61,319 bases of DNA from NCBI GenBank assembly GCA_964494905.1, contig CAZBTU010000003.1, forward strand, positions 1 through 61,319, given 5' to 3'. The notes below the pieces were generated by a model. The model did not search any database. It was not told the DNA's origin and saw only the letters and a program-made list of their open reading frames with translations. Shown piece after piece: positions 1 to 13,782 of this stretch. This DNA comes from an uncultured Pseudomonadales bacterium. GTDB taxonomy: Bacteria; Patescibacteriota; Microgenomatia; UBA1400; PJMF01. A program made the translations under genes and the position numbers. The first letter of the stretch is position 1; each line of letters opens with the position of its first letter.

Positions 1-18
1 TAAGTCTTAAGAATATAA

Positions 19-57
19 GCAAAAAATAGTTCAAACTGAGGATTTGTGGGCTCACAA
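19..57 (+). repeat. Island interspersed repeat, copy A (short form)
   Basis: GCAAAAAATAGTTCAAACTGAG + 10-nt variable spacer + CTCACAA. Same core and orientation as the copies at 1071, 3128 and 8036. Lies just downstream of the APH gene. Confidence 0.6.
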
Positions 58-82
58 TCAATAATTTCAATCATCTCCAAAC

Positions 83-991
83 CTAATCAATTTCTATCTC
101 TGCAAGCGCGTTCGCGACATTTACAAAACTATCAAGGAAATCTGCATTGTCTTCAACTGCCCATAATGACGATAAGACTGTCTGAAATAATCCCCATAAA
201 TAAATTCTCTTAGAATTTAAATCTAATATTCGAGAAAATGTGTAAATACGATTTTTAAGAATTTCCTTAAGTTTAGGATCACTCCCAATTGCTGGAGGAT
301 TTCTAAGAAATGTAGCAACTTCATATGCTTTTTCACCAATGATTCCAGAAGGATCAATTACTATCCAACCCTTTACAGAGTCAAAAATTATATTGAACTG
401 ATGCAAATCTCCGTGTAAAAGAAACTCCTCTTCTGGATTTTGGGTCAAAAGAATATATGCATCTTGAGCTTTCTTTAAAATGTCCGCAGAAAAAAGCGTA
501 TTCATTGGTGATAATTCTTTAAGCCTAAGAAAGTCCTGATATAGTTCATCTAAACTTCTAAAATCTGAAGAAACATCAACTTTTTTCCACAATCGATCCA
601 TAAGTGATGCAGCTATAATAATTGCTTCATCTTCTTGTATCGTGGCAAGAGTTTGTGCTGGGCTTATTTTTTCTAAAAGAATAGCTGGGATAGATTCATC
701 CACTTGTAATACTTTTGGAACTGGACCATCCTTTTGCAATTTTAAATAATTAATTTCACGATAAAATTCTTGATCTGGATAACTTACTTTAAGAACTATA
801 TCGCTTCCATTCTTAGTTTTGCCTTGAGCCACATAATTGCAATAACTATTTTTGAAAGGAGCTTCAATCTCGATATGCCAGTCTTGTTGTAATTTTTCTA
901 TACTACTCGGAAGTTCTTGTAGCCATTTTTTTCCCGCCTCACCTCGTGAGAGCATAAGCTCATTTAATTGTCTTGGTATATTTATTTGCAT
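83..991 (-). CDS. Aminoglycoside O-phosphotransferase, APH(6)/streptomycin 6-kinase (StrB-like) family
   Basis: LHGDLHQFNIIF...GWIVIDPSGIIGE matches the HGDLHxxN catalytic loop and the IDP motif of APH(6) enzymes. The C-terminal half aligns by eye with StrB. The ATG at 991 (MQINIPR) lies 9 nt downstream of a TATAAT (1006-1001 on minus). The ORF-track start at 1000 is a TTG. Confidence 0.8.
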   Translation of the reverse strand: MQINIPRQLNELMLSRGEAGKKWLQELPSSIEKLQQDWHIEIEAPFKNSYCNYVAQGKTKNGSDIVLKVSYPDQEFYREINYLKLQKDGPVPKVLQVDESIPAILLEKISPAQTLATIQEDEAIIIAASLMDRLWKKVDVSSDFRSLDELYQDFLRLKELSPMNTLFSADILKKAQDAYILLTQNPEEEFLLHGDLHQFNIIFDSVKGWIVIDPSGIIGEKAYEVATFLRNPPAIGSDPKLKEILKNRIYTFSRILDLNSKRIYLWGLFQTVLSSLWAVEDNADFLDSFVNVANALAEIEID

Positions 992-1070
992 AATAATCAA
1001 ATTATACTACTAGAAAAAAACAGTAATCAGTTAATACTTTCATAATTTAATTCTATACAATATATAAGAC

Positions 1071-1127
1071 GTAGCCTCTCGAGGTCTGCAAGAAATGGTT
1101 CAAACTGAGTTGCCTTAGGGTCACAGT
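1071..1127 (+). repeat. Island interspersed repeat, copy B (long form)
   Basis: GTAGCCTCTCGAGGTCTGCAAGAAATGGTTCAAACTGAG + 11-nt spacer + GGGTCACAGT. The left arm GTAGCCTCTCGAGGTCTGCAA is identical to copy D at 8036. Confidence 0.65.
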
Positions 1128-1146
1128 AAAAATAGACATCTTTGGC

Positions 1147-1932
1147 ATGGGAATAAAAGACGAAACAAATTATAAAAGAATTTTAGAAGCTTTACTGATA
1201 GTTGTACTTTTTGTCCTGTTTTTTACATATTTCTGTGCTTTGGACATTTTAAGAAATTCAGCGTCCGAACTGTTAAGGGACGTTCGCCCTGAATTAATTG
1301 GTGCTATCATTACATATTTTTTGATTGAAAAAGCACTTTCTTTTTATAGAGCAAGAGAAGAACAAAGGCGCCTTAAGTTAACTCATGATATGTTAAAATC
1401 AGTACTAAATACGTACATAGATCTTGCAGCATCACTATATAAATCGACCCTAAAAGAAAAAATTCAAATACCAAATTTAGATACATTTTTTAATTCTAAT
1501 TTTGTTGGTTCCATAAACAAGATTGATTTGTCCTCAGAATCTTCAATGTTAGAAATGGATAATCTTGCTTTTACTTCTTATAAGGGAATTCTACTACACA
1601 ATGATTTAGAAAATTTTATCAACATCCACTACTACGAGATAAGCAGTGAGATGTTAGATGCTCTGCTAGAATTTAAAGGTAAACTAATAGCTCTCGCTGG
1701 CTTAAAACAACTCTTTCAAACTCGTAAGCGCGCATTAAAAATTAACATCCCAGATACAACTAATTTGGGGGATCTTTTTGAGATATCGATGAATGAGTTT
1801 AAAAATATAGTTAAATTATTTAACAAAGCTAATCCAAAAAATCCAATTAAACTAAATACTAAAATTTTAGAAGATGGTGTTTGGAATGAAAAGCATGCTC
1901 CAAAATTCGGAAGTGGTATAAAAATGGATTAA
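1147..1932 (+). CDS. Hypothetical membrane protein (two N-terminal TM helices, soluble C-terminal domain)
   Basis: Long ORF in the AT-rich island. Hydrophobic stretches ILEALLIVVLFVLFFTYFCAL and PELIGAIITYFLI. No recognisable motif. Confidence 0.55.
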   Translation: MGIKDETNYKRILEALLIVVLFVLFFTYFCALDILRNSASELLRDVRPELIGAIITYFLIEKALSFYRAREEQRRLKLTHDMLKSVLNTYIDLAASLYKSTLKEKIQIPNLDTFFNSNFVGSINKIDLSSESSMLEMDNLAFTSYKGILLHNDLENFINIHYYEISSEMLDALLEFKGKLIALAGLKQLFQTRKRALKINIPDTTNLGDLFEISMNEFKNIVKLFNKANPKNPIKLNTKILEDGVWNEKHAPKFGSGIKMD

Positions 1933-1955
1933 GCTGTTGAGACCTAGGGTCACAA
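1933..1955 (+). repeat. Partial copy of the island repeat (right arm only)
   Basis: GCTGTTGAGACCTAGGGTCACAA resembles ACTGAGTTGCCTTAGGGTCACAG of copy B. Sits immediately after the stop of ORF 1147-1932. Confidence 0.4.
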
Positions 1956-1982
1956 ATTATTCATTTTTAATACTAAAAACTG

Positions 1983-2026
1983 TGGCGCGTATTTTGGCGC
2001 GTATGTGGCGCGAACTGTGATATACT
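1983..2026 (+). promoter_or_regulatory. Fic1 promoter/operator: three phased TGGCGCG direct repeats plus an extended -10
   Basis: TGGCGCG at 1983-1989, 1995-2001 and 2006-2012 (spacing 12 and 11 bp). TGaTATACT at 2018-2026. The ATG at 2034 is only 7 nt after the -10, so the transcript is near-leaderless. Confidence 0.55.
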
Positions 2027-2033
2027 CATTACT

Positions 2034-3086
2034 ATGTATACTCCAAAATTTACTATTACCTCTGAAATAACAAATCAAATAGCTGAGATTGAAGGTATTC
2101 GCACCATTGTAGATCAAAGCAATATTCTACCAGAGAAAGAAATAGCCCTACGATACAGAGCAACTGTAGAAGCAATACATAGCTCAACTACAATTGAAGG
2201 CAATCAACTAAACAAAAAACAAGTTGAGGCTGTACTTGCTGGAAAAGCTGTGGCACAAACTGAGTATGCCATTACTGAAGTAAAAAATTACAAAAATGCT
2301 CTTGACTGGCTACAAATTAGAAAACAAAACTCTAAACAAATCTCAATTGAAGATATCCTAAAAATACACGAGCTAACTATGGATGGACTTTTACCAAAAG
2401 AAAAAACTGGTCATTTGCGTCCGGGAGAAGTATATATTGTTGACATTATTAATAATGATGAGCAAGTTCGCTACCATGGTCCAAAATCTGAATTACTTCC
2501 TGATTTACTTTCAGATCTGTGTAAATGGCTGGAATTCGAAGCCAGTAAACTGCATCCAGTATTAGCTGCAAGCATCCTTCATTATGAATTTGTTTCAATA
2601 CATCCATTTAGCGATGGAAATGGTAGAGTTACTCGATTATTAACAATGCTCTACTTATCTCTGCGTCAATACGATTTTAGAGGAGTACTTGTCCCAGAGA
2701 TTTATTATCTTGATCATCGTATGCAATATTACAATGCTTTAAACCAAGAAAATGAATATAGTAAGCAAAGAAATGCAAATCTTACTCCATGGATTGAATT
2801 TTTCGTCAAAGGATTTTTAACTACAACCAAACACTTAAAAACAGAAATTACTATTGCTCAAGCAGTTAATCCCAAAAATGTAACCATTCGTCTGTCGCAA
2901 GAAGAAATACAGTTGCTCGACTTTGTGAAACAAATGGGTTCAATTTCGTTGGAAGAAACTTTAGAAATTCTACAAATTCCTAGAAGAACTGCTCAAAGAA
3001 GGCTGAGTGAATTAGTTGATAAAGGACTATTACGATTAAACAGCAGTGGTAAAAATACTAATTATATAGCGCATGTTCACAAGTAA
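2034..3086 (+). CDS. Fic family protein, class II (intramolecular inhibitory helix), with C-terminal winged-HTH-like domain
   Basis: Fic core motif HPFSDGNGRVTR (HxFx[D/E]GNGRxxR). Upstream inhibitory motif STTIEGN ([S/T]xxxE[G/N]). The C-terminal LSQEEIQLLDFVKQMGSISLEETLEILQIPRRTAQRRLSELVDKGLL looks like a wHTH. Confidence 0.88.
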   Translation: MYTPKFTITSEITNQIAEIEGIRTIVDQSNILPEKEIALRYRATVEAIHSSTTIEGNQLNKKQVEAVLAGKAVAQTEYAITEVKNYKNALDWLQIRKQNSKQISIEDILKIHELTMDGLLPKEKTGHLRPGEVYIVDIINNDEQVRYHGPKSELLPDLLSDLCKWLEFEASKLHPVLAASILHYEFVSIHPFSDGNGRVTRLLTMLYLSLRQYDFRGVLVPEIYYLDHRMQYYNALNQENEYSKQRNANLTPWIEFFVKGFLTTTKHLKTEITIAQAVNPKNVTIRLSQEEIQLLDFVKQMGSISLEETLEILQIPRRTAQRRLSELVDKGLLRLNSSGKNTNYIAHVHK

Positions 3087-3127
3087 AGCCAAGCTCTTTT
3101 AGTCGAGCATATGTCTTGAGGATACTG

Positions 3128-3168
3128 GCGAAAAATAGTTCCAACTGAGGGTGTGTGAACTCACAGCG
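3128..3168 (+). repeat. Island interspersed repeat, copy C
   Basis: GCGAAAAATAGTTCCAACTGAG + GGTGTGTGAA spacer + CTCACAGC. A degenerate left arm (ATGTCTTGAGGATACTG) lies at 3111-3127. Located in the convergent gap between Fic1 and the 1148-aa gene. Confidence 0.6.
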
Positions 3169-3224
3169 TTTTTCTCTAGAGTTTTTCACACCCTAAGTGC
3201 AACATTGAACTATTCTTACTTTTT

Positions 3225-3261
3225 TGGCACAATTTTTGGCGCGATTATGGCACAATATAGT
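3225..3261 (+). promoter_or_regulatory. Orphan Fic1-type operator/promoter-like element with no downstream ORF
   Basis: TGGCACA (3225-3231), TGGCGCG (3237-3243) and TGGCACA (3248-3254), with the same 12/11-bp phasing as the Fic1 operator. A TATAGT follows at 3256-3261. It points into the 3' end of the convergent 1148-aa gene. Confidence 0.4.
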
Positions 3262-3347
3262 TTGTATTTACTCAAAATGTAACTTTATAAAGTATTTGAA
3301 GATACAGTAATTTTGCTTTATACTGTGGCAAGACCGACAGGGAATAG

Positions 3348-6300
3348 CTAGTTCAATGCTTCAATATATTTATCAATTTGTTCCTTCATGAATGATGTGG
3401 CATTTGATTGATATGATTTTAATAAGTTAATTATTTCACTCGGTGAAATTATCTGTTGCCATTGATCACTTTTTGATTTATAACTTTCAATAAATTCATA
3501 AAAAAATGTAGGATTTTGAGTTACCTCTCTTATGAATATTCTGGCATCTCTCATTTCTCCTGAGTTAAGTAAGATCGGATTGGAAAGAATAAGCTCTTTG
3601 CGATATGTTGGTAAAATCAAAAAAAGATATTCAAATTGTTTTTCCGAAGCAATTGAAGCAAAGAAATTATTAGGTAGACCTGTTGAATTCACTATATCAA
3701 AAACATAGTGTTCACCATGTAGATCTTTTATCCCACTCAATACATTTAGGTAATCCTTAATCATAAAAGTTTCACCTGAATTCATAAAAGCATCTATTTG
3801 ATCAAAATTACTAACAATATTGGCTAGTGTTGTATAACCATAATCATCATAAATACCACGAAATATTTTATTGATTTGATCTTGATTAAGCTGCCCAAAG
3901 TATTCCTTACAAAGGGTAAAGTATGGGTCAGACTCATCTGCAAGATAAAGTTTTTGCAAGAATTCAGTTCGAAAAAGAGTAAACAGAATCAATTGCTTTG
4001 CCATGGGATCGATGACCATGAACTTATCCAAATATTCTGTATCAAGTTTATCTAAATCTCTGATCGCATCAGGGCTTACTGGCACAGTAAGATCAGAAAG
4101 GTTTGGACTAAGAAGAATAAATCGATTGAAGAGTGAACCACCCAGTTTAACATAGATAACGTTACCTGTATTGTCTTCAAATTCAACAACTTCACCGGTT
4201 ATCAATTTTTGTAGAAGTTCTCTGTATAGCACATTGTCATCAAATTCGACAACTTCGCCGGATATGAATTCCTGTGGTAATCGCGGATCAAATCCATACC
4301 AATTTGCATTTGTGTCAACCGCGATAAATCGTAATTGCGAACCTATTTCTCCACTTTTTGTTTCCGGTTTCGGTGCACCAGGTAGATCATCAATTATTTC
4401 ATCAAATACTGCAAGGTTACTCATTAAATAGTCCAATTGATCTCTGAGTTTTTTACTCCCATAAGGATCTCCTGAATATCCTTGATATATTCCAATATAA
4501 TCCTGAAGCAAGCCGCCAATACTCGCGGACGTAGGTGATACACCTGCTATAGCAAGCAGATTCATAATATGATACATCCCACCAGCTAGGTTAGCCGGAT
4601 CAAAGTTTTTCATTAGAAAATCTTTAGAAGGTATATCCCAGTATTTAGATTCTGGGAGCAGTAACGCTAGATCAGCCGCAGTAAATCCTTTTGAAAAAGG
4701 GTCTTCGATCATTGTCTGAGCCAGAAATCCGGAATCAGAATTATTTAATGAACCTATAGGAGTACCTATAAATGGGTTGTTTCTCGTAATCAGTTTTAAA
4801 GCGATAGTTACATCCCACATTGAGGAGTAGAGATCACCGTCATTTTTAACAAGCGCAAAGGCTAATATATCGGAGATAGGAACTTGGTTTTGTGTATGTT
4901 CATATTGTTGAAAAATAAAATTTTGATAATCAGAAAAATATAAAGTAATTTGTTCAATATTTAGCTGTTTAACTGTTGGGTGAAGCGAGTTATACAAAAC
5001 ACAAACGTCGTGGAAATTAGAAAAATTGCTACTGGATAGATGATAAACTTGTTGTAGTGATTCCGATGTTATTGACAAGAATAGAGGATCACTATTATTA
5101 TTTTTTGATAAAGTATAATCCGTGACAACATCATCTAATCCGACGTAGTCAGGATGAACTTGCCAGAAAACAGGCGAGGGGTCGTGATTATATTTTCTCG
5201 CCATTGTTTCATATGTTGAAAATGCATTCGTTAATAACACATCAATTGTTTGATAATTCAGGTTTTCTTTTTCTAATAATTCATATAGTGCTGTCTGCTT
5301 TTCTTCTGGGAATAATTCGATTTGTTCTCGTAACTGATCATCAAAATCTCTTTCTTTTTCCGTAAGGACAGTGATCGCAAACTCGAATAACTTTTTTGCA
5401 GACTCGGGATCACTTAAATCAGCATTTATCATCTGAATAAATTGTGGGTCTGTGAATATATCAATCAGTGCTTCACTAGGTAGTTTAGAGATAAGATTCA
5501 AGGTCTGATGTTCAAACAGTTCTAAAAATTGTGCTCCCATCTCTGTAGTAGTAAGCCACATTAGACCTTTTTGAATAATCATTTGTTCCTGATTATGGAA
5601 AAAATGTTCTACCGATTCACTCGCAGCCGAAACTATATCAGCTGCTGTCGGACCAAAAACTGAAAGTAAATATAATATATTCACTAAGATTAAATCTTTT
5701 TTTAAATCGGCAGCTCTATCACTATTTGTTGCAACTTGTTCAATTCTTGTACGGATTCTGTTTATCTCTCTTGGTATTTTTTGACCCTGTTGTTCCATGC
5801 AGACACACCACTGGACTATTTTTTGTGTCGGCGTAAGACTATCATCACTAAGCACCAAACTTGCAATTTTAGGCTTCAGTTCTTCAAGAGTTTTCAGGGA
5901 TCGTAAACGACTGACGTTGTCGCCATAGCTGTATGCACCTGATCTCTGATCTTCAAGCAATTGGCCATAAACAACAGCGTGTGAATGTTCTCGAGAACCC
6001 TGTGTAGTCCGTAATGTTTGAGTCAGTACACCCATGTGTTTAAGAGTTTTCTCAATTTCACTTTTACCTTTTTCTTTAAGTGTGTTTTCTAAACCAAAGA
6101 AATCATTTATTCTACCAAAAAATTTGGTTCTTCCAATACTTTCAGCAGCTAGTCCATCAAGCGCCATTGCTTTATTGAGGTTCCATTGTTTCAAAAAATC
6201 ATGATTAGCATCTTTTAAAAAAGAAGCTGCTGTATTCCACCAGGTTTTTGACTCAACTGCAAGAAAATCATAATAACTGATTTTATCGGTAAAACCATCT

Positions 6301-6794
6301 TCGCCTGATTCAAGTTTAAGAGTTAGGAAAACAAATTGCCGTAGTTTTTCAATTGAAGTTTGCTCTAGATCTATTTTCCCCAAACAATCTATAATTTGTT
6401 CTGCGTTTGTGAGCTGTTTTTCTACTAATGGACAAAGATCCGCAAATACTTCAATCATACTCATTCGCACATTTCGTTCTTTCGAATTGTTTGGCTGAAG
6501 AGAGGTGACAGAATCAAATGAATAGGGTTTGATGTATTTTAGAAAACGTTCTACCTTAACTGACAACGTTGTGCTAGGTTCTACAAGGATTTCATTTACC
6601 TTATCATCAAAATCATTTGAGCTTATCGTCGATGCATGAACTTTCTTAATGAAATCAGCTTCTTCTTTCAGTAAATGCAGTATTTTCTTTGAAGTTATTG
6701 CATTTATTTCTTCTAATAAACGCGTCTCAGTCAAGAGCTTCTTTCCAATTTCAAAATTCAAAGTATCAATATTTTCAACAGGTTTTTCGTTCAA
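3348..6794 (-). CDS. Large orphan protein (1148 aa), function unknown
   Basis: Uninterrupted 3.4-kb ORF in AT-rich DNA. Apparent TTG start; the next in-frame Met is about 105 codons in. No catalytic motif recognised. Internal duplicated segment SGEVVEFDDN / TGEVVEFEDN (29-nt DNA repeat at 4171-4199 and 4234-4262). Co-directional with the Fic gene 137 nt upstream. Confidence 0.75.
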   Translation of the reverse strand: MNEKPVENIDTLNFEIGKKLLTETRLLEEINAITSKKILHLLKEEADFIKKVHASTISSNDFDDKVNEILVEPSTTLSVKVERFLKYIKPYSFDSVTSLQPNNSKERNVRMSMIEVFADLCPLVEKQLTNAEQIIDCLGKIDLEQTSIEKLRQFVFLTLKLESGEDGFTDKISYYDFLAVESKTWWNTAASFLKDANHDFLKQWNLNKAMALDGLAAESIGRTKFFGRINDFFGLENTLKEKGKSEIEKTLKHMGVLTQTLRTTQGSREHSHAVVYGQLLEDQRSGAYSYGDNVSRLRSLKTLEELKPKIASLVLSDDSLTPTQKIVQWCVCMEQQGQKIPREINRIRTRIEQVATNSDRAADLKKDLILVNILYLLSVFGPTAADIVSAASESVEHFFHNQEQMIIQKGLMWLTTTEMGAQFLELFEHQTLNLISKLPSEALIDIFTDPQFIQMINADLSDPESAKKLFEFAITVLTEKERDFDDQLREQIELFPEEKQTALYELLEKENLNYQTIDVLLTNAFSTYETMARKYNHDPSPVFWQVHPDYVGLDDVVTDYTLSKNNNSDPLFLSITSESLQQVYHLSSSNFSNFHDVCVLYNSLHPTVKQLNIEQITLYFSDYQNFIFQQYEHTQNQVPISDILAFALVKNDGDLYSSMWDVTIALKLITRNNPFIGTPIGSLNNSDSGFLAQTMIEDPFSKGFTAADLALLLPESKYWDIPSKDFLMKNFDPANLAGGMYHIMNLLAIAGVSPTSASIGGLLQDYIGIYQGYSGDPYGSKKLRDQLDYLMSNLAVFDEIIDDLPGAPKPETKSGEIGSQLRFIAVDTNANWYGFDPRLPQEFISGEVVEFDDNVLYRELLQKLITGEVVEFEDNTGNVIYVKLGGSLFNRFILLSPNLSDLTVPVSPDAIRDLDKLDTEYLDKFMVIDPMAKQLILFTLFRTEFLQKLYLADESDPYFTLCKEYFGQLNQDQINKIFRGIYDDYGYTTLANIVSNFDQIDAFMNSGETFMIKDYLNVLSGIKDLHGEHYVFDIVNSTGLPNNFFASIASEKQFEYLFLILPTYRKELILSNPILLNSGEMRDARIFIREVTQNPTFFYEFIESYKSKSDQWQQIISPSEIINLLKSYQSNATSFMKEQIDKYIEALN

Positions 6795-6931
6795 AACATG
6801 TACTTTTTTTTTAGCAAAATTTCTGGCATGTATTTACTTTAACACGATTTTGTTGATTTTGCACAAAAATGTGAGTTCAATACCCTATGAGAATTTGTTG
6901 AAAAAATACCTGTCATTCATTAAATAAAATC

Positions 6932-7966
6932 TTACTTATCACTCAACACATAATAAGTAGACCGACCCTTACCCTCGCGTTTAATTAAACCTAATTCAAT
7001 CAATCTTTGAAAATCGAGTGTTCTGGTAGCCTTTGCCCTATCAGTCAACTTTGAATATGCTCTATCTGTAATAAAACCGTTTTGCTTTATATAATTAATT
7101 AATTTTAAATGATATGTCTCAATTTTAGTTTCAGGGGAATAACCAGTTTGCGGAATTATCTTTTTCACTCTGTGCAACTCATCAATGATACCTTCTGTAA
7201 AATACTCAAGCCAACTAGTGAAATCAATTGTTTCTCTCAATTCATTATAATCACCACATTCACCAACAGTCTGAAAATATTTTGTTACATTTTTATTGTA
7301 ATAGTTCTCAAAACTAAACAGATTAAATGTATTAAGTCCCATTTTTGCCAACAGAACTTTAGTCATTAATCTTGTGGTTCTACCATTCCCATCAATAAAA
7401 GGGTGGATAATAACCATTTGTTTATGAAAAATGCCTGCCAAAATCAAAGAATCCACAATATTTTTATTTCGGATAACAAATGTGGCAAGTTCTGTCATTA
7501 ATTTATTAACTTGATCATGATCAGGAGGTAAAAATACAACCTTGCCTGTTCTAGGATCATTAACAACTACAGGCTTTTTTCTCAGTCTACCTGACTCAAA
7601 ATCAGGTAACAAGCCGCCAATGACTTTTTTATGAACTGCTAAAATTAGATTTAAAGAAATAGATAAATCATCTTTTTTACTAAGATCATTCAAGTATTCA
7701 AGTGCCTCAATATAGTTAAGCACTTCTCGTTCACTATCACGAATGTATTCTGGTCTATTCTTTAATACTTTTTTAACTTCAGTTAAAGGTAATGGATTAC
7801 CCTCAATACTCGTAGATGCAAAGGCAGAAACTTCTCTTGCCTTTCTTTCAAAATCAATCAATACAACTTTGGGAAATCTTTGATTATTGAGTTCTTCGAC
7901 TAATAAAGCTATATACTTTATATTTGAAAGCAGCTTATTTGTAATCGTATACTTTGGCGTAAACAT
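6932..7966 (-). CDS. Fic family protein, class II, with C-terminal wHTH-like domain (paralog of 2034-3086)
   Basis: Fic motif HPFIDGNGRTTR. Inhibitory motif STSIEGN. N-terminus MFTPKYTITNKLL parallels MYTPKFTITSEIT of Fic1. C-terminal LKLINYIKQNGFITDRAYSKLTDRAKATRTLDFQRLIELGLI is HTH-like. Confidence 0.88.
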   Translation of the reverse strand: MFTPKYTITNKLLSNIKYIALLVEELNNQRFPKVVLIDFERKAREVSAFASTSIEGNPLPLTEVKKVLKNRPEYIRDSEREVLNYIEALEYLNDLSKKDDLSISLNLILAVHKKVIGGLLPDFESGRLRKKPVVVNDPRTGKVVFLPPDHDQVNKLMTELATFVIRNKNIVDSLILAGIFHKQMVIIHPFIDGNGRTTRLMTKVLLAKMGLNTFNLFSFENYYNKNVTKYFQTVGECGDYNELRETIDFTSWLEYFTEGIIDELHRVKKIIPQTGYSPETKIETYHLKLINYIKQNGFITDRAYSKLTDRAKATRTLDFQRLIELGLIKREGKGRSTYYVLSDK

Positions 7967-7968
7967 AT

Positions 7969-8004
7969 TAGTCTAATAATAGTCGATTATTAGTCGATTG
8001 TCAA
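7969..8004 (-). promoter_or_regulatory. Fic2 promoter/operator: TTGACA-17-TATTAT overlaid by three phased TAGTC(G/T)A repeats
   Basis: On the minus strand, TTGACA (8004-7999), a 17-nt spacer, then TATTAT (7981-7976). The ATG at 7966 is 9 nt after the -10. On the plus strand, TAGTCTA 7969-7975, TAGTCGA 7980-7986 and TAGTCGA 7991-7997 (11-bp phasing). Confidence 0.6.
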
Positions 8005-8035
8005 TACTCTGATTTTATGCTAAGTATAGTAAGAT

Positions 8036-8089
8036 GTAGCCTCTCGAGGTCTGCAAAAAATAGTTCCAACTGAGGGCGCGTGGGGTCAC
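8036..8089 (+). repeat. Island interspersed repeat, copy D (long form), at the right edge of the AT-rich island
   Basis: GTAGCCTCTCGAGGTCTGCAAAAAATAGTTCCAACTGAG + GGCGCGTGG spacer + GGTCAC. Coincides with the switch from about one-third GC to higher-GC DNA. Confidence 0.65.
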
Positions 8090-8156
8090 TCTATTGGAGT
8101 TTGTGAGAGTTGATTAGTCTTGCTACTTCTAATAGCAACCAATTTCATCAACTCGA

Positions 8157-8771
8157 TCAGAAGCAGTATGACAACATAATTTCCCTTGCTGTTAGTTTGT
8201 AAAAATTGAAAGCAGCTAGCATTTCGTTTGTGGCATTCTGACTCAGTCGATTTTCACTTCCAGCGATAAACTCAAGACGATCGTCTAACACTTTCGAGTT
8301 AGTTAATGACGATATCCGCCTTGTGACAGACCAAACAGTATCAATGAATGGCGGTAGCTTCATGCCTCTTCTAATCTCAACAAATTCTTCTTCCTCCACT
8401 TGTCTCCCCAACAAAGATGAGATGTATAGCTGCTCCACCCCAAAATCAGTATCGGCATCAAATTTAGTATTAAACACTTTTCGAATAGTAGGAATGATCT
8501 CCTCACTGACAGCTGTTAGAATTTCCTCGACACGTTCGGCTGTGGATACTTGCTTCCCAGTAACACGATCTGTATTGATGGGAAAAAGTGTCGGGACAGC
8601 GTCCTCAGTCAATTCAATGGGCGAGAGGGGCGGCTGCTTAATTGTTGAAAAAACATCGTCGATATCAGGTTGCTGCAAATGTTGTGCCTCAAATTCAAAT
8701 AGGTCCTTTTGCAATCGTGTTCTGTTTATATGTGAAGTGACTGATGCTAGTAACTCACGAGCCAGATGCAA
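8157..8771 (-). CDS. Hypothetical protein (204 aa)
   Basis: ORF co-directional with and 66 nt downstream of the PD-(D/E)xK-like gene. No motif recognised. Confidence 0.55.
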   Translation of the reverse strand: MHLARELLASVTSHINRTRLQKDLFEFEAQHLQQPDIDDVFSTIKQPPLSPIELTEDAVPTLFPINTDRVTGKQVSTAERVEEILTAVSEEIIPTIRKVFNTKFDADTDFGVEQLYISSLLGRQVEEEEFVEIRRGMKLPPFIDTVWSVTRRISSLTNSKVLDDRLEFIAGSENRLSQNATNEMLAAFNFYKLTAREIMLSYCF

Positions 8772-8837
8772 CTGTTCACTAAACTTCTTTTTTTGATCAG
8801 TTGTAGAACTGGGAGGATGTTCAATCTCAGCAATTTC

Positions 8838-9305
8838 TCAAGCGAATGATGCATAAATAAGCTTGTTTCTATAGATCCCGAATGATTCAGCACTTGCAAT
8901 CTTATCAACCTCAAAAGAAGAGTCTACATCAGGTTTCCTAATTTTAACTTCAACTATTGCGGCAACTTCGTATACATCTCCGACGTCTTTTACTACAATA
9001 AAATCAGGCGGATATATTTTTGCATTACTGAGTGAATGCGCCAGCAACTGATTATCAGGAACAGGCGACACATTGCGGATATCTTTCATCGCATGCAGGA
9101 TGAATTGCCCAAGCATCTCAGACTTAGTTCCGGCCCGAGTAAGTATGCCACGATGCTCGAGCATCATTTGTGCTAAATACTCACCAGCCAGACCGACGGC
9201 ATTTTCTAAAGTTTTAGGCCTTTCGAATCGATCAACGACAACTAAATCTGGCTGTAACGATGGACTTATATGCTTAATCTCATCAATCTGGTGTTCCTGA
9301 TTCAT
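8838..9305 (-). CDS. PD-(D/E)xK nuclease-fold-like small protein
   Basis: PPDFIVVKDVGDVYEVAAIVEVKIRK gives PD ... E-x-K in the usual order and spacing. Start refined to the ATG at 9305 (MNQEHQ), 6 nt after TGtTATACT (9320-9312, minus). The longer track ORF (to 9443) would run through that promoter. Confidence 0.45.
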   Translation of the reverse strand: MNQEHQIDEIKHISPSLQPDLVVVDRFERPKTLENAVGLAGEYLAQMMLEHRGILTRAGTKSEMLGQFILHAMKDIRNVSPVPDNQLLAHSLSNAKIYPPDFIVVKDVGDVYEVAAIVEVKIRKPDVDSSFEVDKIASAESFGIYRNKLIYASFA

Positions 9306-9365
9306 TTTGTAAGTATAACAAATATTCATATGATACTTGCATTGATGATATGATATAACCAACCT
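9306..9365. promoter_or_regulatory. Divergent near-leaderless promoter pair
   Basis: Minus strand: TGtTATACT at 9320-9312, 6 nt before the ATG at 9305. Plus strand: TGaTATAAC at 9351-9359, 6 nt before the ATG at 9366. Confidence 0.45.
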
Positions 9366-9863
9366 ATGAGAGAAAGTTTGTCTAGTTACTTCAAACAGCA
9401 TTTGAAGAAAGAAAATAAGATCGTTCAACATGAAATTCGGCAAATTTCAGATGAACAAGAACAGGTAATGATCGAACATATAGCCAAGATTTGCCCCCCC
9501 GATTTCCCAATCGGCAAAGGACTAAGAGGTGGCTTCGACCTTAAGATGGTTGCTCAGTATCAACCTGAGCAATGCGTCACAATCCTTGGTAAAGCTTTTG
9601 TAATTCCAAAAGCCGGAAAAGCGTCTCTACAAATTGAACAACAAGACACTCATAGAACAGATGGGAGAAAAGAGTACATCTTTGAAGTGACAGATCGCTC
9701 TGTCTTTGTTGCAAGCTCTGGTAGTGCTACAGAACTTGTAGTCATCACGGAGGTGCCTGAGGGCTTACCCTCTGATCCTTTTGCCAGAACCTATGTGTTT
9801 ATTACCAATGATGCATTGCGAACCATTCTGGAATCACACCAGAGCATCTCTTCAGTCATCTAA
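9366..9863 (+). CDS. Hypothetical protein (165 aa) sharing an AKI(C/Y)PPDF motif with the divergent neighbour
   Basis: IEHIAKICPPDF compared with LSNAKIYPPDF in 8838-9305. Nothing else recognisable. Confidence 0.55.
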   Translation: MRESLSSYFKQHLKKENKIVQHEIRQISDEQEQVMIEHIAKICPPDFPIGKGLRGGFDLKMVAQYQPEQCVTILGKAFVIPKAGKASLQIEQQDTHRTDGRKEYIFEVTDRSVFVASSGSATELVVITEVPEGLPSDPFARTYVFITNDALRTILESHQSISSVI

Positions 9864-9917
9864 CCTACCCTGATCCAAGCAGTTACTCTTGCAGAGTAAA
9901 TATGCTATAAGAAATGC

Positions 9918-12380
9918 ATGCATGAATTGACTAGAGTTAATGAAATTAACAAACCGGCAGAGTTACCACCAAAAATCTCCCAGGTAACAGAGAAACCCAT
10001 ACCTCAAGAACTTCAACCATACAAAATTAAATCCGTCACAGAAGTTGGCCTAGAAACCGGCACAACTAGTGTTGTTTGCCAACTCGACAACAAACATGCG
10101 TACAATGCCCAGAGCTTGGCTGCTATTCGAGATCAGTTGGACCAGAATCGAGTTGCGGTAATGTTAGATAACAACTTCAAGGACAAAACCAGTGCTAGCT
10201 GGGTAAAGATCTTCAAGACCGTCAATGGCATAAAAACACTGGTAGCGCGATTTGACCCTCAGAGCAATGTTCTCCATGTTGATCACCACCTCACGACAGC
10301 AGAAATTGGTGAGACACCTCTCAACCAAGAGCTCAACCCAGAATTGCCAGCGTCAACGACACCACTGGTTGTTGCTTTTTTTCGCGGGCTGAGTGAAGGG
10401 ACACTCTTTACCGAAGATGAAAACTTCCCTGGTTGCATTGAATCTCTCAACAACACTTGGGATGCTCACCAATTCATGGTGTTTGTAGATCATTTTGATC
10501 CAGACTCTACAGAGTCATCAATGGCAGTGCTGAAGGCTAGCAGGGACAATGTTAATCACCAGTACTTTGATGAATTGGCAGCAACCACCCTGGACGCCGA
10601 CCACCGCGGGACGTATAGAACTAAAGATGGAGCCTCAAATGCTCGCGAAAAACTGGTCAAGGTACTCTCAGAACTCAGTATCCTGAGTGTACCAAGAACG
10701 ATCAAAGCACTTCAGGTTCTTGAAAATATCACCGACCACAATCAGCTTGCTGAAGCCCTGATAGCCAACAACATGCCAGACGCTGCTCAGTTATATCTGA
10801 ACTTTGAAAAAATATTGCAGTCCACCGAAGCAGTTGCTGAGTCTATGGCGGCACACTACGATGGTCATGGGAACGTGGTCTATAACGTGTTGGCGGGTGA
10901 TACAGAGCTAGATATGGCATACTTGGCGAGTGCTCTCCAGGAGAAATATGGCAAAGAGATCGGTCCAGACGGCATTGAAGTTTGTTTGATAGTCAAAGAT
11001 TATGGCCAGGTTGATGCTAGTAATTTTCCTGATGTTCACGAGTACGGCGTCTGGGTAAGAACCCTGCATGAAGCAGTGGATCTCAATAAATCTGGAGCAT
11101 TGCTTGAACTACTTGGCATCTATGGCCGGAGCACAGCCCGAGGGAACCGAAATGCAATTTCACACGTTTCACAACATGGAGTGACCTTTACTATTACGGG
11201 TACGGCTGATCTACTTGCCGACCTTAATGCAGGGAGCAGGTGGCGCTCTAAAAACGCATGGGGACTGATTAAAACCCTTGAAATGATCTTCGACCGTGAC
11301 CCAGCTTCACACACTATAGAACAATATATTGGATCTCGACCCGATAGTGTGCGCAGGTCCAGAACAATACCGGGGACCAACCAAGAACGAGGCGTTGCGT
11401 TGGACACGATCAGTACGGGTGAGCGAAGTGGTGAACAACGCGTCATCAAGTACCTCATTTATCCACCGGGTGAATCCCCTAATCAGGAATTCATATCAGA
11501 AGTACATACTGCCGGAGTTGCTGCTGCACTCCTTTGGCGTGACGGGCGACAGTTGGTGCTCATCCCAGAAACAATCGGACTTCACATCAAACCAGGGTTC
11601 GTCGGAGCAGAGTTTGAACGTGTTCAGATGCTTAATGATCCCAAACTAAATGAGATGGGTATGCCAATCGTGGAAGACGGGCAACATCAGTTTGCTCAGG
11701 TAAGTGAGCACTCAGAAGCAATGCTAGCCCACTTAGATGACATGAGAAATGTTCCCATAGCTATTTTAGATGCAGGGAAAGTAAGGGTGGCAAGTGCAGC
11801 TGAGTACAAATCAGATGTAACAAACTTACTTGCTGATTTACCAATAGGTTTACTACCTCTGCAGCAGATAGAGATGATACAACAACTAGAGTTTCACTTT
11901 GATCAGAATGAGAGGGTCTTAGTAAATGGCCGCACAAAACCTGATAACATGTTTGTAAAAGTGGACCGAATTGGGCAAACTGACTGGCAGTCAATCAAGC
12001 AAGGACATAGATATGAAGATCAAGTGTCCCTCCTCAGTAGTTTTCTGTTGATGAACCCTGCAGAGATAAACCGATACGCCAGGGGGATGGATTTCAAGAA
12101 CCCTGATGTACAATTTCTATTTATCAGTCGGGCACTCTTTGCTTTGCAGTACAACATAGATAAAATAAAAAGACTTGAAGAAGAGAACAATTATAGTGAA
12201 GTGGAAATCACAAAACTGAAGGTGCGTATTCACCTTGAGATTGTCACATGGGCACTGTCTGATCAAAAAGATTTAAGCAGGTTGCAACAATTAAGTGGAG
12301 AATTACGCAAAAAGCTGCAGGAACATAGACCAAGCACTGCACATCAAGCGAATCAGATGTTCGGTACTTCTGTTGGTTGA
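9918..12380 (+). CDS. Large hypothetical protein (820 aa) with a degenerate DHH/DHHA1-like N-terminal region and a C-terminal coiled coil
   Basis: LHVDHHL (nt 10281-10289), followed by ELPASTTPLVVAFF, resembles DHH motif III and its following helix. VWVRTLHEAVDLNKSGALLELLGIYGRSTARGNRNAIS resembles the DHHA1 ...GGGGHxNAAG segment, but the GGGH is replaced. Resemblance is by eye only. Confidence 0.6.
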   Translation: MHELTRVNEINKPAELPPKISQVTEKPIPQELQPYKIKSVTEVGLETGTTSVVCQLDNKHAYNAQSLAAIRDQLDQNRVAVMLDNNFKDKTSASWVKIFKTVNGIKTLVARFDPQSNVLHVDHHLTTAEIGETPLNQELNPELPASTTPLVVAFFRGLSEGTLFTEDENFPGCIESLNNTWDAHQFMVFVDHFDPDSTESSMAVLKASRDNVNHQYFDELAATTLDADHRGTYRTKDGASNAREKLVKVLSELSILSVPRTIKALQVLENITDHNQLAEALIANNMPDAAQLYLNFEKILQSTEAVAESMAAHYDGHGNVVYNVLAGDTELDMAYLASALQEKYGKEIGPDGIEVCLIVKDYGQVDASNFPDVHEYGVWVRTLHEAVDLNKSGALLELLGIYGRSTARGNRNAISHVSQHGVTFTITGTADLLADLNAGSRWRSKNAWGLIKTLEMIFDRDPASHTIEQYIGSRPDSVRRSRTIPGTNQERGVALDTISTGERSGEQRVIKYLIYPPGESPNQEFISEVHTAGVAAALLWRDGRQLVLIPETIGLHIKPGFVGAEFERVQMLNDPKLNEMGMPIVEDGQHQFAQVSEHSEAMLAHLDDMRNVPIAILDAGKVRVASAAEYKSDVTNLLADLPIGLLPLQQIEMIQQLEFHFDQNERVLVNGRTKPDNMFVKVDRIGQTDWQSIKQGHRYEDQVSLLSSFLLMNPAEINRYARGMDFKNPDVQFLFISRALFALQYNIDKIKRLEEENNYSEVEITKLKVRIHLEIVTWALSDQKDLSRLQQLSGELRKKLQEHRPSTAHQANQMFGTSVG

Positions 12381-12609
12381 TCTGGGTGAGCTTTTGTTGA
12401 CAAATTGCACTTCTTAATCTTTCTCCAAACTAAATAATAGCCTGCAGCAAGAATAATGAACAATCAAACACAAAGCGGTTGTACAAATTGACCTGCCAAT
12501 AATCACTGTTGTTGAACTAATGGTCTCGATCTGAATACTGTGATACTCTAGTTCTTCCGGAAAATAAAAATTACTCTGATTAAACATCTAAGGATTGCTG
12601 GAAAAACAC

Positions 12610-13782
12610 ATGAATTCAATACCAGCCAGCTATCTCAAAACACTGCCAATCTTTCCAAGGACACTCATTAAATATCAACTTGCTACTAACATTTCAATAT
12701 CTCAACTAGTGAACTTAACATCTGATGGAATCGACAGACAAAAATTGGAAAACTGTTTAGATCAAACTGAGCTTGAGTTCATTAAGAATTATCTTAAAGA
12801 AACCAAATCTCATGAGTATCTCTTTGACCCAGGTGTAAGTCGCTTGATTGCCAAGAACCGACTTTTGTTTCACCTCGAGCCAAAGAAACAAAACAAAGAG
12901 GGTACAAGAAAAAAACTAGCTCACCCTCAAACAATCGTATTAGGTTATCCGAAATGCGCAACAACATGGTTTTACACTTTAATCCGCCAGGTTACATTGT
13001 TTGATGTACCGCCAAAAGAAATCGAGTTTTTTGGATCATGGAGATACAGTAAGGGTGAGTCATGGTATCAAAACCACTTCTCTTCGAAAAAACCATCAAT
13101 TGATGTGAGTGTCGGTTCAGTCAGACATTCTGAAATCTGGGATCGCATCAAATCTTATGAAGTTAAACATAAAAACAAGGTCAAAAAGCTCATCTTTGTC
13201 AGACGCCCATCAGAGAGAGCTTTGTCGTTCATTAGGCACAGAAAAGCAAAAGGAGAAGGATACTACAACTTCCCAAGCTACCTAAAAAGTGGATATGTTA
13301 AGTCAATGTTTATTAACACTTCAGATTACAAAACTGACCTAGAAAAGCTCACATCTGTCTTTCAAACTCAAGATTTTTTTATTGTCTTTCAGGAGGACAT
13401 CATTTCAGACCCAAAAGCAACATTCGCCGCTATTATTGCCTTCATGCTTGGTAATAGTGCGAACACTCAGAAAATTTCGAGTACGGTGCGAGCACTCGAT
13501 TTTGCAAGAATTGAAAATCAGAGCACTCAAATCAGAATGTTCCCTTTACTTAAGTTTGCGTATGAACAAGAATATTGGTGGAAAAGTAAGCATTTCCCAC
13601 AGCTTGTATATATTGGTTACGGTATCAGACGAATAGCGGAGCTACTATGCTACACGAATGAAACTGCACAAAGAACAGAGTATAAAAACTTTATCCAAAA
13701 CCATCCTAGAATCATACAGCTGGACCGCATGTATGATCAACTAAAAACATGGCTTGATGGCAATGGCATCGCACATTCGTAA
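12610..13782 (+). CDS. Sulfotransferase-domain protein (PAPS-dependent) with an N-terminal extension of about 105 aa
   Basis: VLGYPKCATTWF matches the 5'-PSB loop (PKxGTTW). FVRRPSERALSFIRH matches the 3'-PB motif (RxPxxRxxS). The track start at 12595 is a TTG; the ATG at 12610 is used here. Confidence 0.7.
   Translation: MNSIPASYLKTLPIFPRTLIKYQLATNISISQLVNLTSDGIDRQKLENCLDQTELEFIKNYLKETKSHEYLFDPGVSRLIAKNRLLFHLEPKKQNKEGTRKKLAHPQTIVLGYPKCATTWFYTLIRQVTLFDVPPKEIEFFGSWRYSKGESWYQNHFSSKKPSIDVSVGSVRHSEIWDRIKSYEVKHKNKVKKLIFVRRPSERALSFIRHRKAKGEGYYNFPSYLKSGYVKSMFINTSDYKTDLEKLTSVFQTQDFFIVFQEDIISDPKATFAAIIAFMLGNSANTQKISSTVRALDFARIENQSTQIRMFPLLKFAYEQEYWWKSKHFPQLVYIGYGIRRIAELLCYTNETAQRTEYKNFIQNHPRIIQLDRMYDQLKTWLDGNGIAHS

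Follow-up and report, generated by a model that had tools for sequence, protein, structure and literature searches.

Fic genes and a giant gene of a rare protein family in a repeat-bounded, low-GC array of a probable Pacebacteria-like bacterium

The first 8096 bp of a 61,319-bp contig, the whole of which is the window analysed here, form an array of genes of low G+C content (GC) in which a gene for a 1148-aa protein (hereafter the giant) lies between two Fic genes, Fic1 and Fic2. A sequence-only reading of this DNA had proposed that Fic2 and the giant make up a two-gene system, faced by a second Fic. We find that this pairing is not conserved: relatives of the giant have no separate Fic gene near them at the loci checked, and orthologues of Fic2 occur without the giant, as single genes between copies of a ~75-nt direct repeat or next to unrelated neighbours. 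We lean towards an explanation in which Fic1 and Fic2 are independent, self-inhibited cassettes and the giant gene was separately acquired and has no functional tie to Fic2.

Linkage between the two genes was assessed from both sides. The contigs of seven long relatives of the giant were fetched. One of the seven, P0126, is the exception described below; around the other six (P0122, P0123, P0124, P0125, P0128 and P0129; loci L089–L097) a Fic gene distinct from the relative itself was looked for. Reading in six frames revealed no Fic motif at any of the loci (6/6) within the flanks retrieved, which reached up to 10 kb per side, and the array repeat was also absent there. The four homologues with long flanks sit among housekeeping genes (GltX, YbeY, DnaX, MreB, trigger factor, ArgRS); the contigs of P0123 and P0124 measure just 5–8 kb. 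On the Fic2 side, three orthologues with 82–85% identity were compared (L081, L083 and L086), and tblastn with the giant against these loci returned nothing. In two of the three genomes the orthologue is a single-gene unit with repeats on both sides. Five repeat copies at L081 surround four single genes, the Fic2 orthologue first, followed by genes for proteins of 278 aa and 245 aa and an AAA_14-DUF4143 gene; at L083 the order is HKD (PLD-family) nuclease, repeat, Fic, repeat. The orthologue at L086 is without a repeat and is adjoined by a convergent helix-turn-helix (HTH)/Gp49 pair. With giant homologues lacking Fic and Fic2 orthologues lacking the giant, the proposed two-gene system is not borne out, by the refuting condition that the sequence-only reading had itself set. 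As a separate observation, a type IV secretion system (T4SS)-like cluster lies ~4.5 kb from the Fic2-orthologue cassette of L083 (MAG contig CAZUHV010000001.1, 15516–20689: VirB4/TraG-like ATPase, PrgI-like, T4SS pilin, TrbC), together with an HsdM gene.

Among the genes of the contig are those for SecA, ATP synthase, LysRS and CysNC. The best identity of SecA, 70%, is to Paceibacterota/Patescibacteria metagenome-assembled genomes (MAGs), which identifies the predicted host as a Pacebacteria-like bacterium of the Candidate Phyla Radiation (CPR). Members of this radiation have tiny genomes, seldom with CRISPR, and their acquisition and exchange of accessory and defence genes is poorly known. 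Within positions 1–8096 the GC is 33.5%, as against 44.1% in the remaining contig, and all five array genes have a third-codon-position GC (GC3) of 0.21–0.26, compared with 0.33–0.43 elsewhere on the contig. These values show a region foreign in composition and support the earlier description of it as a mobile-looking island; the layout of its genes also proved to be as described (Table 1), with Fic1 and the giant gene convergent.

Copies of the repeat divide the island into four units, A to D. All copies have the same orientation, and the four strong ones (R1, R2, R4 and R5) are intergenic; the degenerate copy R3 was also picked up independently as repeat family D2. The contig begins within R1, and the array therefore probably extends past the contig. 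A 32-nt pattern was found in nine species-representative genomes, all of them Patescibacteria-like, in 17 metagenome contigs and in no viral contig, a distribution by which the repeat appears to be lineage-specific. Arrays of it are present in the window and at L081, L205, L219, L220/L222, L227 and L236; lone copies, without a nuclease gene, lie between ordinary genes at L146 and L177. Elsewhere the copies are spaced 0.69–1.5 kb apart, in one case 2.9 kb. Unit D of the window, 4.9 kb long, exceeds every other unit seen; it is one of only two with more than one gene and the sole one with a giant gene.

Fic genes recur in these arrays. Fic1-like genes, 47–49% identical to Fic1 and either flanked by repeats or adjacent to one, are found at L220/L222, L227 and L219, whose arrays also carry HIT, AAA_14-DUF4143 and HTH-Fic genes; the L205 array carries an alpha/beta-hydrolase gene. 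Fic1-like and Fic2-like cassettes occupy differing array positions in different genomes, and AMPylators of the SoFic type, described below, are the commonest identifiable cargo, a hint that AMPylation serves defence or toxin functions in CPR bacteria. Fic genes being recurrent independent cargo, the second Fic beside Fic2 and the giant is therefore accounted for as just another cassette, in place of the arrangement facing the pair that had been read into it. The protein of unit B had no relative in any fetched locus and no family match in Pfam or NCBIfam.

Table 1. Coordinates of the array features in the window and of the HKD nuclease genes beside repeats at other loci
Feature	Position	Strand	Description
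R1	3–64	+	repeat copy; 53.2 bits, E 1e-15; at contig end
Unit A	83–1000	−	APH(6)-like aminoglycoside/hydroxyurea kinase-family gene, 305 aa; Pfam PF04655 E 3.5e-31; GC3 0.22
R2	1057–1132	+	repeat copy; 73.8 bits, E 4e-22
Unit B	1147–1932	+	261-aa protein without family match
R3	1919–1960	+	partial, degenerate repeat copy, right half only; 7.7 bits, E 0.16 over whole window; overlaps unit B stop codon
Three GGCGCG-containing boxes	1983–2012	+	Fic1 leader; tandem repeat family D5
Unit C (Fic1)	2034–3086	+	350 aa, SoFic-type class II; inhibitory motif 2184–2201, catalytic motif starts at 2601, winged helix-turn-helix at the C terminus
R4	3096–3173	+	repeat copy; 58.4 bits, E 2.4e-17
Orphan Fic1-type leader	3174–3282	+	three GGCGCG-like boxes; ends ATG-TAA at 3277; no Fic open reading frame behind
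Unit D	3348–6794 and 6932–7966	−	giant and Fic2; bounded by R4 and R5, 4.9 kb
Giant gene	3348–6794	−	1148 aa, mostly alpha-helical; TTG is the most upstream start
Tandem duplication in giant	4170–4262	−	21 codons, SGEVVEFDDN / TGEVVEFEDN; residues 845–854 and 866–875
Conserved core domain of giant	4365–5357	−	residues 480–810, ~330 aa
Fic2–giant spacer	6795–6931	−	137 nt
Fic2	6932–7966	−	344 aa, SoFic-type class II; inhibitory motif 7799–7816, catalytic motif starts at 7405
Promoter-like site	8004–7976	−	TTGACA-17-TATTAT, 11/12 sigma-70-like; upstream of Fic2
R5	8024–8096	+	repeat copy; 68.3 bits, E 2e-20; array end, at GC jump
HKD nuclease genes	L155:1037–1492, L205:1903–2358, L236:232–672, L227:275–763, L222:9996–10436, L126:3034–3516		plus 11 further loci

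Within unit D, Fic2 and the giant gene are co-directional and 137 nt apart, as had been noted, and a consensus scan of their spacer found no terminator-like site; the two genes may be co-transcribed from the Fic2 promoter. The unit also carries a rearrangement scar. R4 and the orphan leader behind it (~110 nt) are together identical at 104 of 145 positions to the stretch of L220 that runs from the repeat to the start of a Fic1-like gene. In the window this leader has no Fic open reading frame (ORF) behind it, and a Fic1-type cassette has therefore been truncated beside the 3′ end of the giant gene. At the other end of that gene, the boundary that follows Fic2 elsewhere is missing: in L081 and L083 a repeat lies 0–25 nt past the Fic2 stop codon, and none is present at that spot in the window. 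We believe that the adjacency of Fic2 and the giant is best explained by fusion or rearrangement of units, or by loss of a boundary repeat.

Both Fic proteins match the Pfam Fic family (PF02661; E 1e-15 for Fic2 and 9e-19 for Fic1). The catalytic loop, HPFxDGNGRxxR, is intact in each, reading HPFIDGNGRTTR from position 7405 on the minus strand in Fic2 and HPFSDGNGRVTR from position 2601 on the plus strand in Fic1. N-terminal to the Fic core, their translations contain the cis inhibitory motif S51xxxE55-G56, as STSIEG in Fic2 and STTIEG in Fic1. Both proteins consequently look like regulated, cis-inhibited class II AMPylators, in keeping with the earlier suggestion that they are not dead domains. 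The PADLOC model for SoFic was matched by Fic2 over residues 47–341 (E 1.6e-46) and by Fic1 over residues 10–346 (E 5.6e-54), and relatives of known structure in the PDB were FICD and SoFic for Fic2, and 4RGL and SoFic (3EQX/3ZCN) for Fic1. Matches to Fic_N were weak in both, under the gathering score of Pfam; winged-helix matches in Pfam were weak as well, and the SoFic structures were matched via the C-terminal half. Against the NCBIfam SoFic equivalog, the two proteins score 64 and 79 bits, where the cut-off is 550. With scores so far under the cut-off and an identity of 26% to one another, Fic1 and Fic2 are two distinct and distant, CPR-specific subfamilies of the SoFic kind. The family of Fic2 is very well populated: more than 120 relatives of Fic2 at an identity of at least 67% are among those listed, and the named ones among those listed are all from Microgenomates/Pacebacteria-type MAGs.

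In its original description SoFic is a Fic protein that confers phage protection on its own (bioRxiv 10.1101/2022.05.11.491447). A later paper classes it as a class 2 single-protein system and reports a 47-aa antitoxin downstream of it in Escherichia coli (PMC12249575). The 137-nt spacer past Fic2 has no room for an antitoxin of this AS1-like, 47-aa kind, the only ATG-started frame in it being of 11 codons, and neither the list of window ORFs nor a reading of the spacer shows a small ORF adjoining Fic1 or Fic2. Most likely, Fic1 and Fic2 would each be a latent AMPylator that needs no partner for its role in toxicity or defence. Upstream of Fic1 lie three boxes containing GGCGCG, and three such tandem boxes are also found upstream of the Fic1-like gene in L220 (~470–500); such boxes may form an operator to which the Fic protein binds through its own winged-helix domain.

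Relatives of the giant proved hard to find. The protein has no match in Pfam, NCBIfam, PADLOC or PDB sequences; word-indexed protein searches recovered nothing beyond the query, whether started from the giant or from a family alignment of 12 sequences, and a back-translated scan of the contigs of the genome collection with the giant gave nothing. An exhaustive HMMER scan of 1.84 billion representatives identified 21 relatives. The description of the giant as an orphan accordingly stands for Pfam, for PDB sequences and for word-indexed search, and falls for the exhaustive scan. P0122, the closest relative, is a protein of 1521 aa that matches residues 103–912 with 35% identity (E 7e-125). Beyond it, nine relatives reach E < 1e-20; of these ten, the shortest has 389 aa (P0130, seemingly a fragment) and the longest 2126 aa. 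The relatives found in the scan are remote and comprise long proteins, of 957–2126 aa, and a short, ~400-aa group that matches only residues 611–767. In all, members of the family range from ~400 aa to more than 6000 aa. Judged by these matches, the giant is a diverged member of a rare, uncharacterised family, so far encountered only in CPR-type metagenome contigs. The TTG start remarked upon earlier is the most upstream one possible, and the internal duplication with 21-codon spacing, also noted then, is real. The copies of the duplication are identical at 26 of 30 nt, and 0 of 100 shuffles gave such a repeat; the duplicated segment is single-copy in homologues, and the duplication is therefore specific to the giant of the window.

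The conserved core of the family carries motifs that include KNxGD...LWDxTIxxKxLTRNN and DPANxAGxxYHxLNL. Five residues, D661, G689, G738, Y741 and H742, are invariant in the 12 long members (alignment A1), and D661, G738 and Y741 are still invariant when the short homologues are added (alignment A2). AlphaFold2 (AF2), run on residues 480–810 with a 20-sequence alignment, produced a confident all-alpha model (predicted local distance difference test, pLDDT, 78; predicted template-modelling score, pTM, 0.73); the model of the whole giant from its single sequence was unusable (pLDDT 38). Profile and structure searches of the kind proposed in the sequence-only reading identified no known counterpart of the core. 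Against the PDB and BFVD, Foldseek with the core model came up empty (best E 0.6 and 0.3, respectively; template-modelling score < 0.2), and the core profile gave only noise against PDB sequences (top match MB21D2, E 0.15). When 20 family members were compared with Pfam at E up to 1, they had no family in common besides signals of the twin-arginine translocation (Tat) type. The core is, on the basis of the model, a candidate new fold.

Tat signals are present in four short homologues (P0135, P0136, P0140 and P0142), which are ~400 aa long and consist of the core only. They suggest an extracytoplasmic role for the core domain in the organisms that encode these short homologues. One short core homologue is encoded at L218:8001–9191. 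The giant of the window has no signal peptide and no strong hydrophobic segment, its maximum 19-residue Kyte–Doolittle score being 1.67.

In one lineage the core and a Fic domain are joined in a single polypeptide. P0126, a partial protein of 2126 aa from Microgenomates GW2011_GWC1_43_11 (KKS87938.1; locus L088, LCFF01000048.1, 1–6382), has the giant core, then a Fic motif, HPFNEGNGRTQR (Pfam Fic, E 9e-9), and then a PT-HINT/intein-like domain (PF07591). The same core and Fic motif recur in P0145, a Gottesmanbacteria protein of 4930 aa, and in P0149, of 6355 aa. The three proteins fall into one 50%-identity cluster and therefore represent one lineage and one fusion event. No inhibitory motif in cis could be recognised in the fused Fic when its sequence was read, and this Fic is only ~30% identical to Fic2 over 112 aa. 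We regard the fusion as a single hint, of the Rosetta-stone type, of functional coupling between core and Fic. Other elements of P0126 were read from its sequence: downstream of the core are an HEFVH zincin-like motif and hydrophobic segments, and the segment just past the HINT domain repeats one upstream of the Fic domain. The gene after P0126 also gives an intein-splicing match.

What the giant itself does can be suggested only tentatively. Because versions of the core carry Tat signals, because D, Y and H residues are invariant in it and because effector-type modules accompany it in the fused lineage, the giant might possibly be an extracytoplasmic or partner-directed enzyme, or an effector scaffold.

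A small HKD/PLD-family nuclease gene lies directly beside the repeat in 17 of ~27 repeat-bearing loci. The nuclease has 146–162 aa, its HxKx4D and GSxN motifs are intact, copies are 54–88% identical, and no sequence homologue was found in the PDB. At every locus checked, its transcription leads away from the repeat, and in six arrays it is found outside the first repeat, always on the same side. On the window contig, where the array edge is the contig end, there is no HKD nuclease gene. The nuclease may be a recombinase, a frequent cargo or a mere neighbour. No Pfam recombinase was found among the ORFs flanking the arrays of the window, L081 and L083, and tblastn with tyrosine, serine and Y1 recombinases against the window and the array loci recovered only the source locus of each query (L086, L126), the array edge in the window again being the contig end. 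At L126 a large serine recombinase gene (760–2421) and an IS200-type Y1 transposase gene (3650–4063) lie near a lone repeat and an HKD nuclease gene. As the sole case of a recombinase seen near a repeat, this locus may mean that the repeat serves as an attachment site.

The repeats themselves showed no sign of secondary structure. Single-strand DNA folding of both strands gave z-scores of −0.44 to +1.28 relative to shuffled sequences, with no hairpin, and RNAalifold predicted 0 pairs in 38 aligned copies. Inspection of the repeat alignment found no RYYYAAC...GTTRRRY pair, and Rfam had no match within positions 1–13000 at E up to 1. The repeats were ruled out as attC/integron sites, having no hairpin.

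Just beyond the array, positions 8157–12380 hold four ORFs (204, 201, 165 and 820 aa) with no match in Pfam, NCBIfam or PADLOC. A back-translated scan of the contigs of the genome collection found no relative of the 820-aa protein. Synteny of this gene with the 845-aa neighbour of the Fic2 orthologue at L083 was considered and ruled out, the two having no similarity.

Taken together, these observations are consistent with the following course of events. The low-GC array would have been acquired horizontally into the chromosome of a Pacebacteria-like CPR bacterium, with the ~75-nt lineage-specific direct repeat separating its gene units. Fic1 and Fic2 would have been brought in as separate, self-contained cassettes, each with its own inhibitory helix, catalytic loop and C-terminal winged helix. 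The giant gene would have been acquired separately and brought next to Fic2 by loss of a repeat or by fusion of two units; it might be read through from the Fic2 promoter with no functional tie to Fic2.

Several points weigh against this account. The linkage test rests on six homologue loci, some of them on short contigs. Fic2 and the giant gene share one strand and one unit, with a 137-nt spacer free of terminator-like sites and a strong promoter-like site at Fic2 only, an arrangement that fits an operon, and in one lineage the core and a Fic domain have come to share a polypeptide (P0126, P0145, P0149). No remnant of a repeat could be demonstrated in the stretch that separates Fic2 from the giant: a model search restricted to the spacer gave a faint match at 6832–6880 (E 0.016), and a control spacer scored as well, with E 0.011 for a meaningless 12-nt match, so that a decayed repeat at this place is unproven. 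Finally, no recombinase was identified, and the repeats could instead be, for example, regulatory elements.

Put more boldly, the arrays could be an integron-like gene-capture platform of Pacebacteria-like CPR bacteria, with an HKD nuclease at the edge, hairpin-less ~75-nt repeats and mostly single-gene cassettes rich in Fic and defence-type genes, in which Fic2 and the giant are possibly a real pair, echoed by core–Fic fusions of up to 6355 aa. We put this forward as a speculation, more doubtful than probable.

The same points that fit an operon, and the core–Fic fusion, speak for a functional module of Fic2 and the giant, in which a latent Fic AMPylator would have the large protein as its sensor, scaffold, substrate or delivery partner. 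We think such a module unlikely. The six loci of long homologues are free of Fic motifs as far as they were retrieved, the orthologues of Fic2 at 82–85% identity do without the giant, and proteins of the SoFic type are described as working alone. The fused Fic is a diverged domain without a recognisable inhibitory motif in cis and the product of one event, and the unit in which the two genes meet carries a rearrangement scar.

A different possibility concerns the repeats, which might be a dispersed regulatory or promoter element, such as a copied upstream region of the HKD nuclease gene, and not unit boundaries; the island would then be variable and of the defence type, with Fic2 and the giant as unrelated neighbours. 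The lone copies between ordinary genes would fit this, as would the repeat abutting the start of the nuclease gene in 17 loci, the lack of a hairpin or consensus structure, and the lack of a recombinase beside arrays other than at L126. It is nevertheless rather improbable, as the copies keep one orientation whatever the orientation of the genes and bracket nearly every gene, homologous cassettes appear at different array positions with different neighbours, and the last copy, R5, falls at a compositional boundary. Very doubtful, finally, is the idea that the giant serves an episymbiotic CPR cell as an effector scaffold, polymorphic-toxin-like or host-directed, with Fic in trans here and toxin modules (Fic, zincin-like, HINT) in cis in some relatives: the Fic, PT-HINT, HEFVH motif and hydrophobic segments that follow the core in P0126, the same Fic motif in P0145 and P0149 and the Tat signals of the short core-only homologues favour it, but the giant of the window has no signal peptide, strong hydrophobic segment, PT-HINT, toxin tip or downstream immunity-like gene, the HINT domain of P0126 may be an ordinary intein, the next gene also having an intein-splicing match, and most family members lack a recognisable effector domain.

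Independent Fic cassettes beside a functionally untied giant remain the explanation towards which we lean, and it is with this arrangement that known systems are best compared. The Fic genes here are of a known type. Like SoFic (PDB 3EQX/3ZCN), a single-gene anti-phage system (Millman et al., 2022), both window Fic proteins combine an N-terminal (S/T)xxxE(G/N) helix, an HPFxDGNGRxxR core and a C-terminal winged helix-turn-helix; they differ in being not equivalogs of it but members of distant CPR-specific subfamilies, known here from sequence alone.

The nearest precedent for a Fic protein with a partner is provided by the class I Fic modules (VbhT/VbhA, FicT/FicA), two-gene systems in which a small antitoxin supplies the inhibitory helix in trans and controls the Fic protein. 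In the window, by contrast, Fic1 and Fic2 each carry the inhibitory motif in cis, and what lies downstream of Fic2 is the gene for a protein of 1148 aa.

Polymorphic toxins of the pre-toxin HINT kind resemble P0126, in which a long N-terminal region is followed by Fic and PT-HINT, and resemble the giant family in general, which is very large, modular and variable between genomes. The window giant differs from them in having no trafficking domain, PT-HINT, toxin tip or immunity gene, and the list of window ORFs has no small gene between the giant and R4. This rare family is uncharacterised, its fold is possibly new, and it includes versions with Tat signals and versions fused to Fic.

The array itself shares most with integrons and with clusters of attC sites lacking integron-integrases (CALINs). 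Integrons are known to store cassettes that encode defence functions (PMC12614218). Common to both are mostly single-gene units, direct repeats in one orientation, foreign cargo that includes defence-type genes, homologous cassettes at differing positions and a conserved edge gene transcribed away from the array, here the HKD nuclease and in integrons intI; the position of the nuclease recalls the intI–attI–cassette layout. The differences are that no integron integrase, attC-like hairpin or R″/R′ core-site pair was found, that the array genes lie in both orientations and that several units have a leader or promoter of their own. We found no description of such arrays in CPR/Patescibacteria in the literature searched. 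Of all that this locus offers, the repeat-bounded array with its HKD nuclease is the most novel. It resembles an integron, yet integron integrase and attC hairpins, the parts by which integrons are defined, are missing from it, and integron-like variant describes it best; if it is true that the repeats are recombination sites, ultra-small bacteria would have in it a new way of capturing genes.

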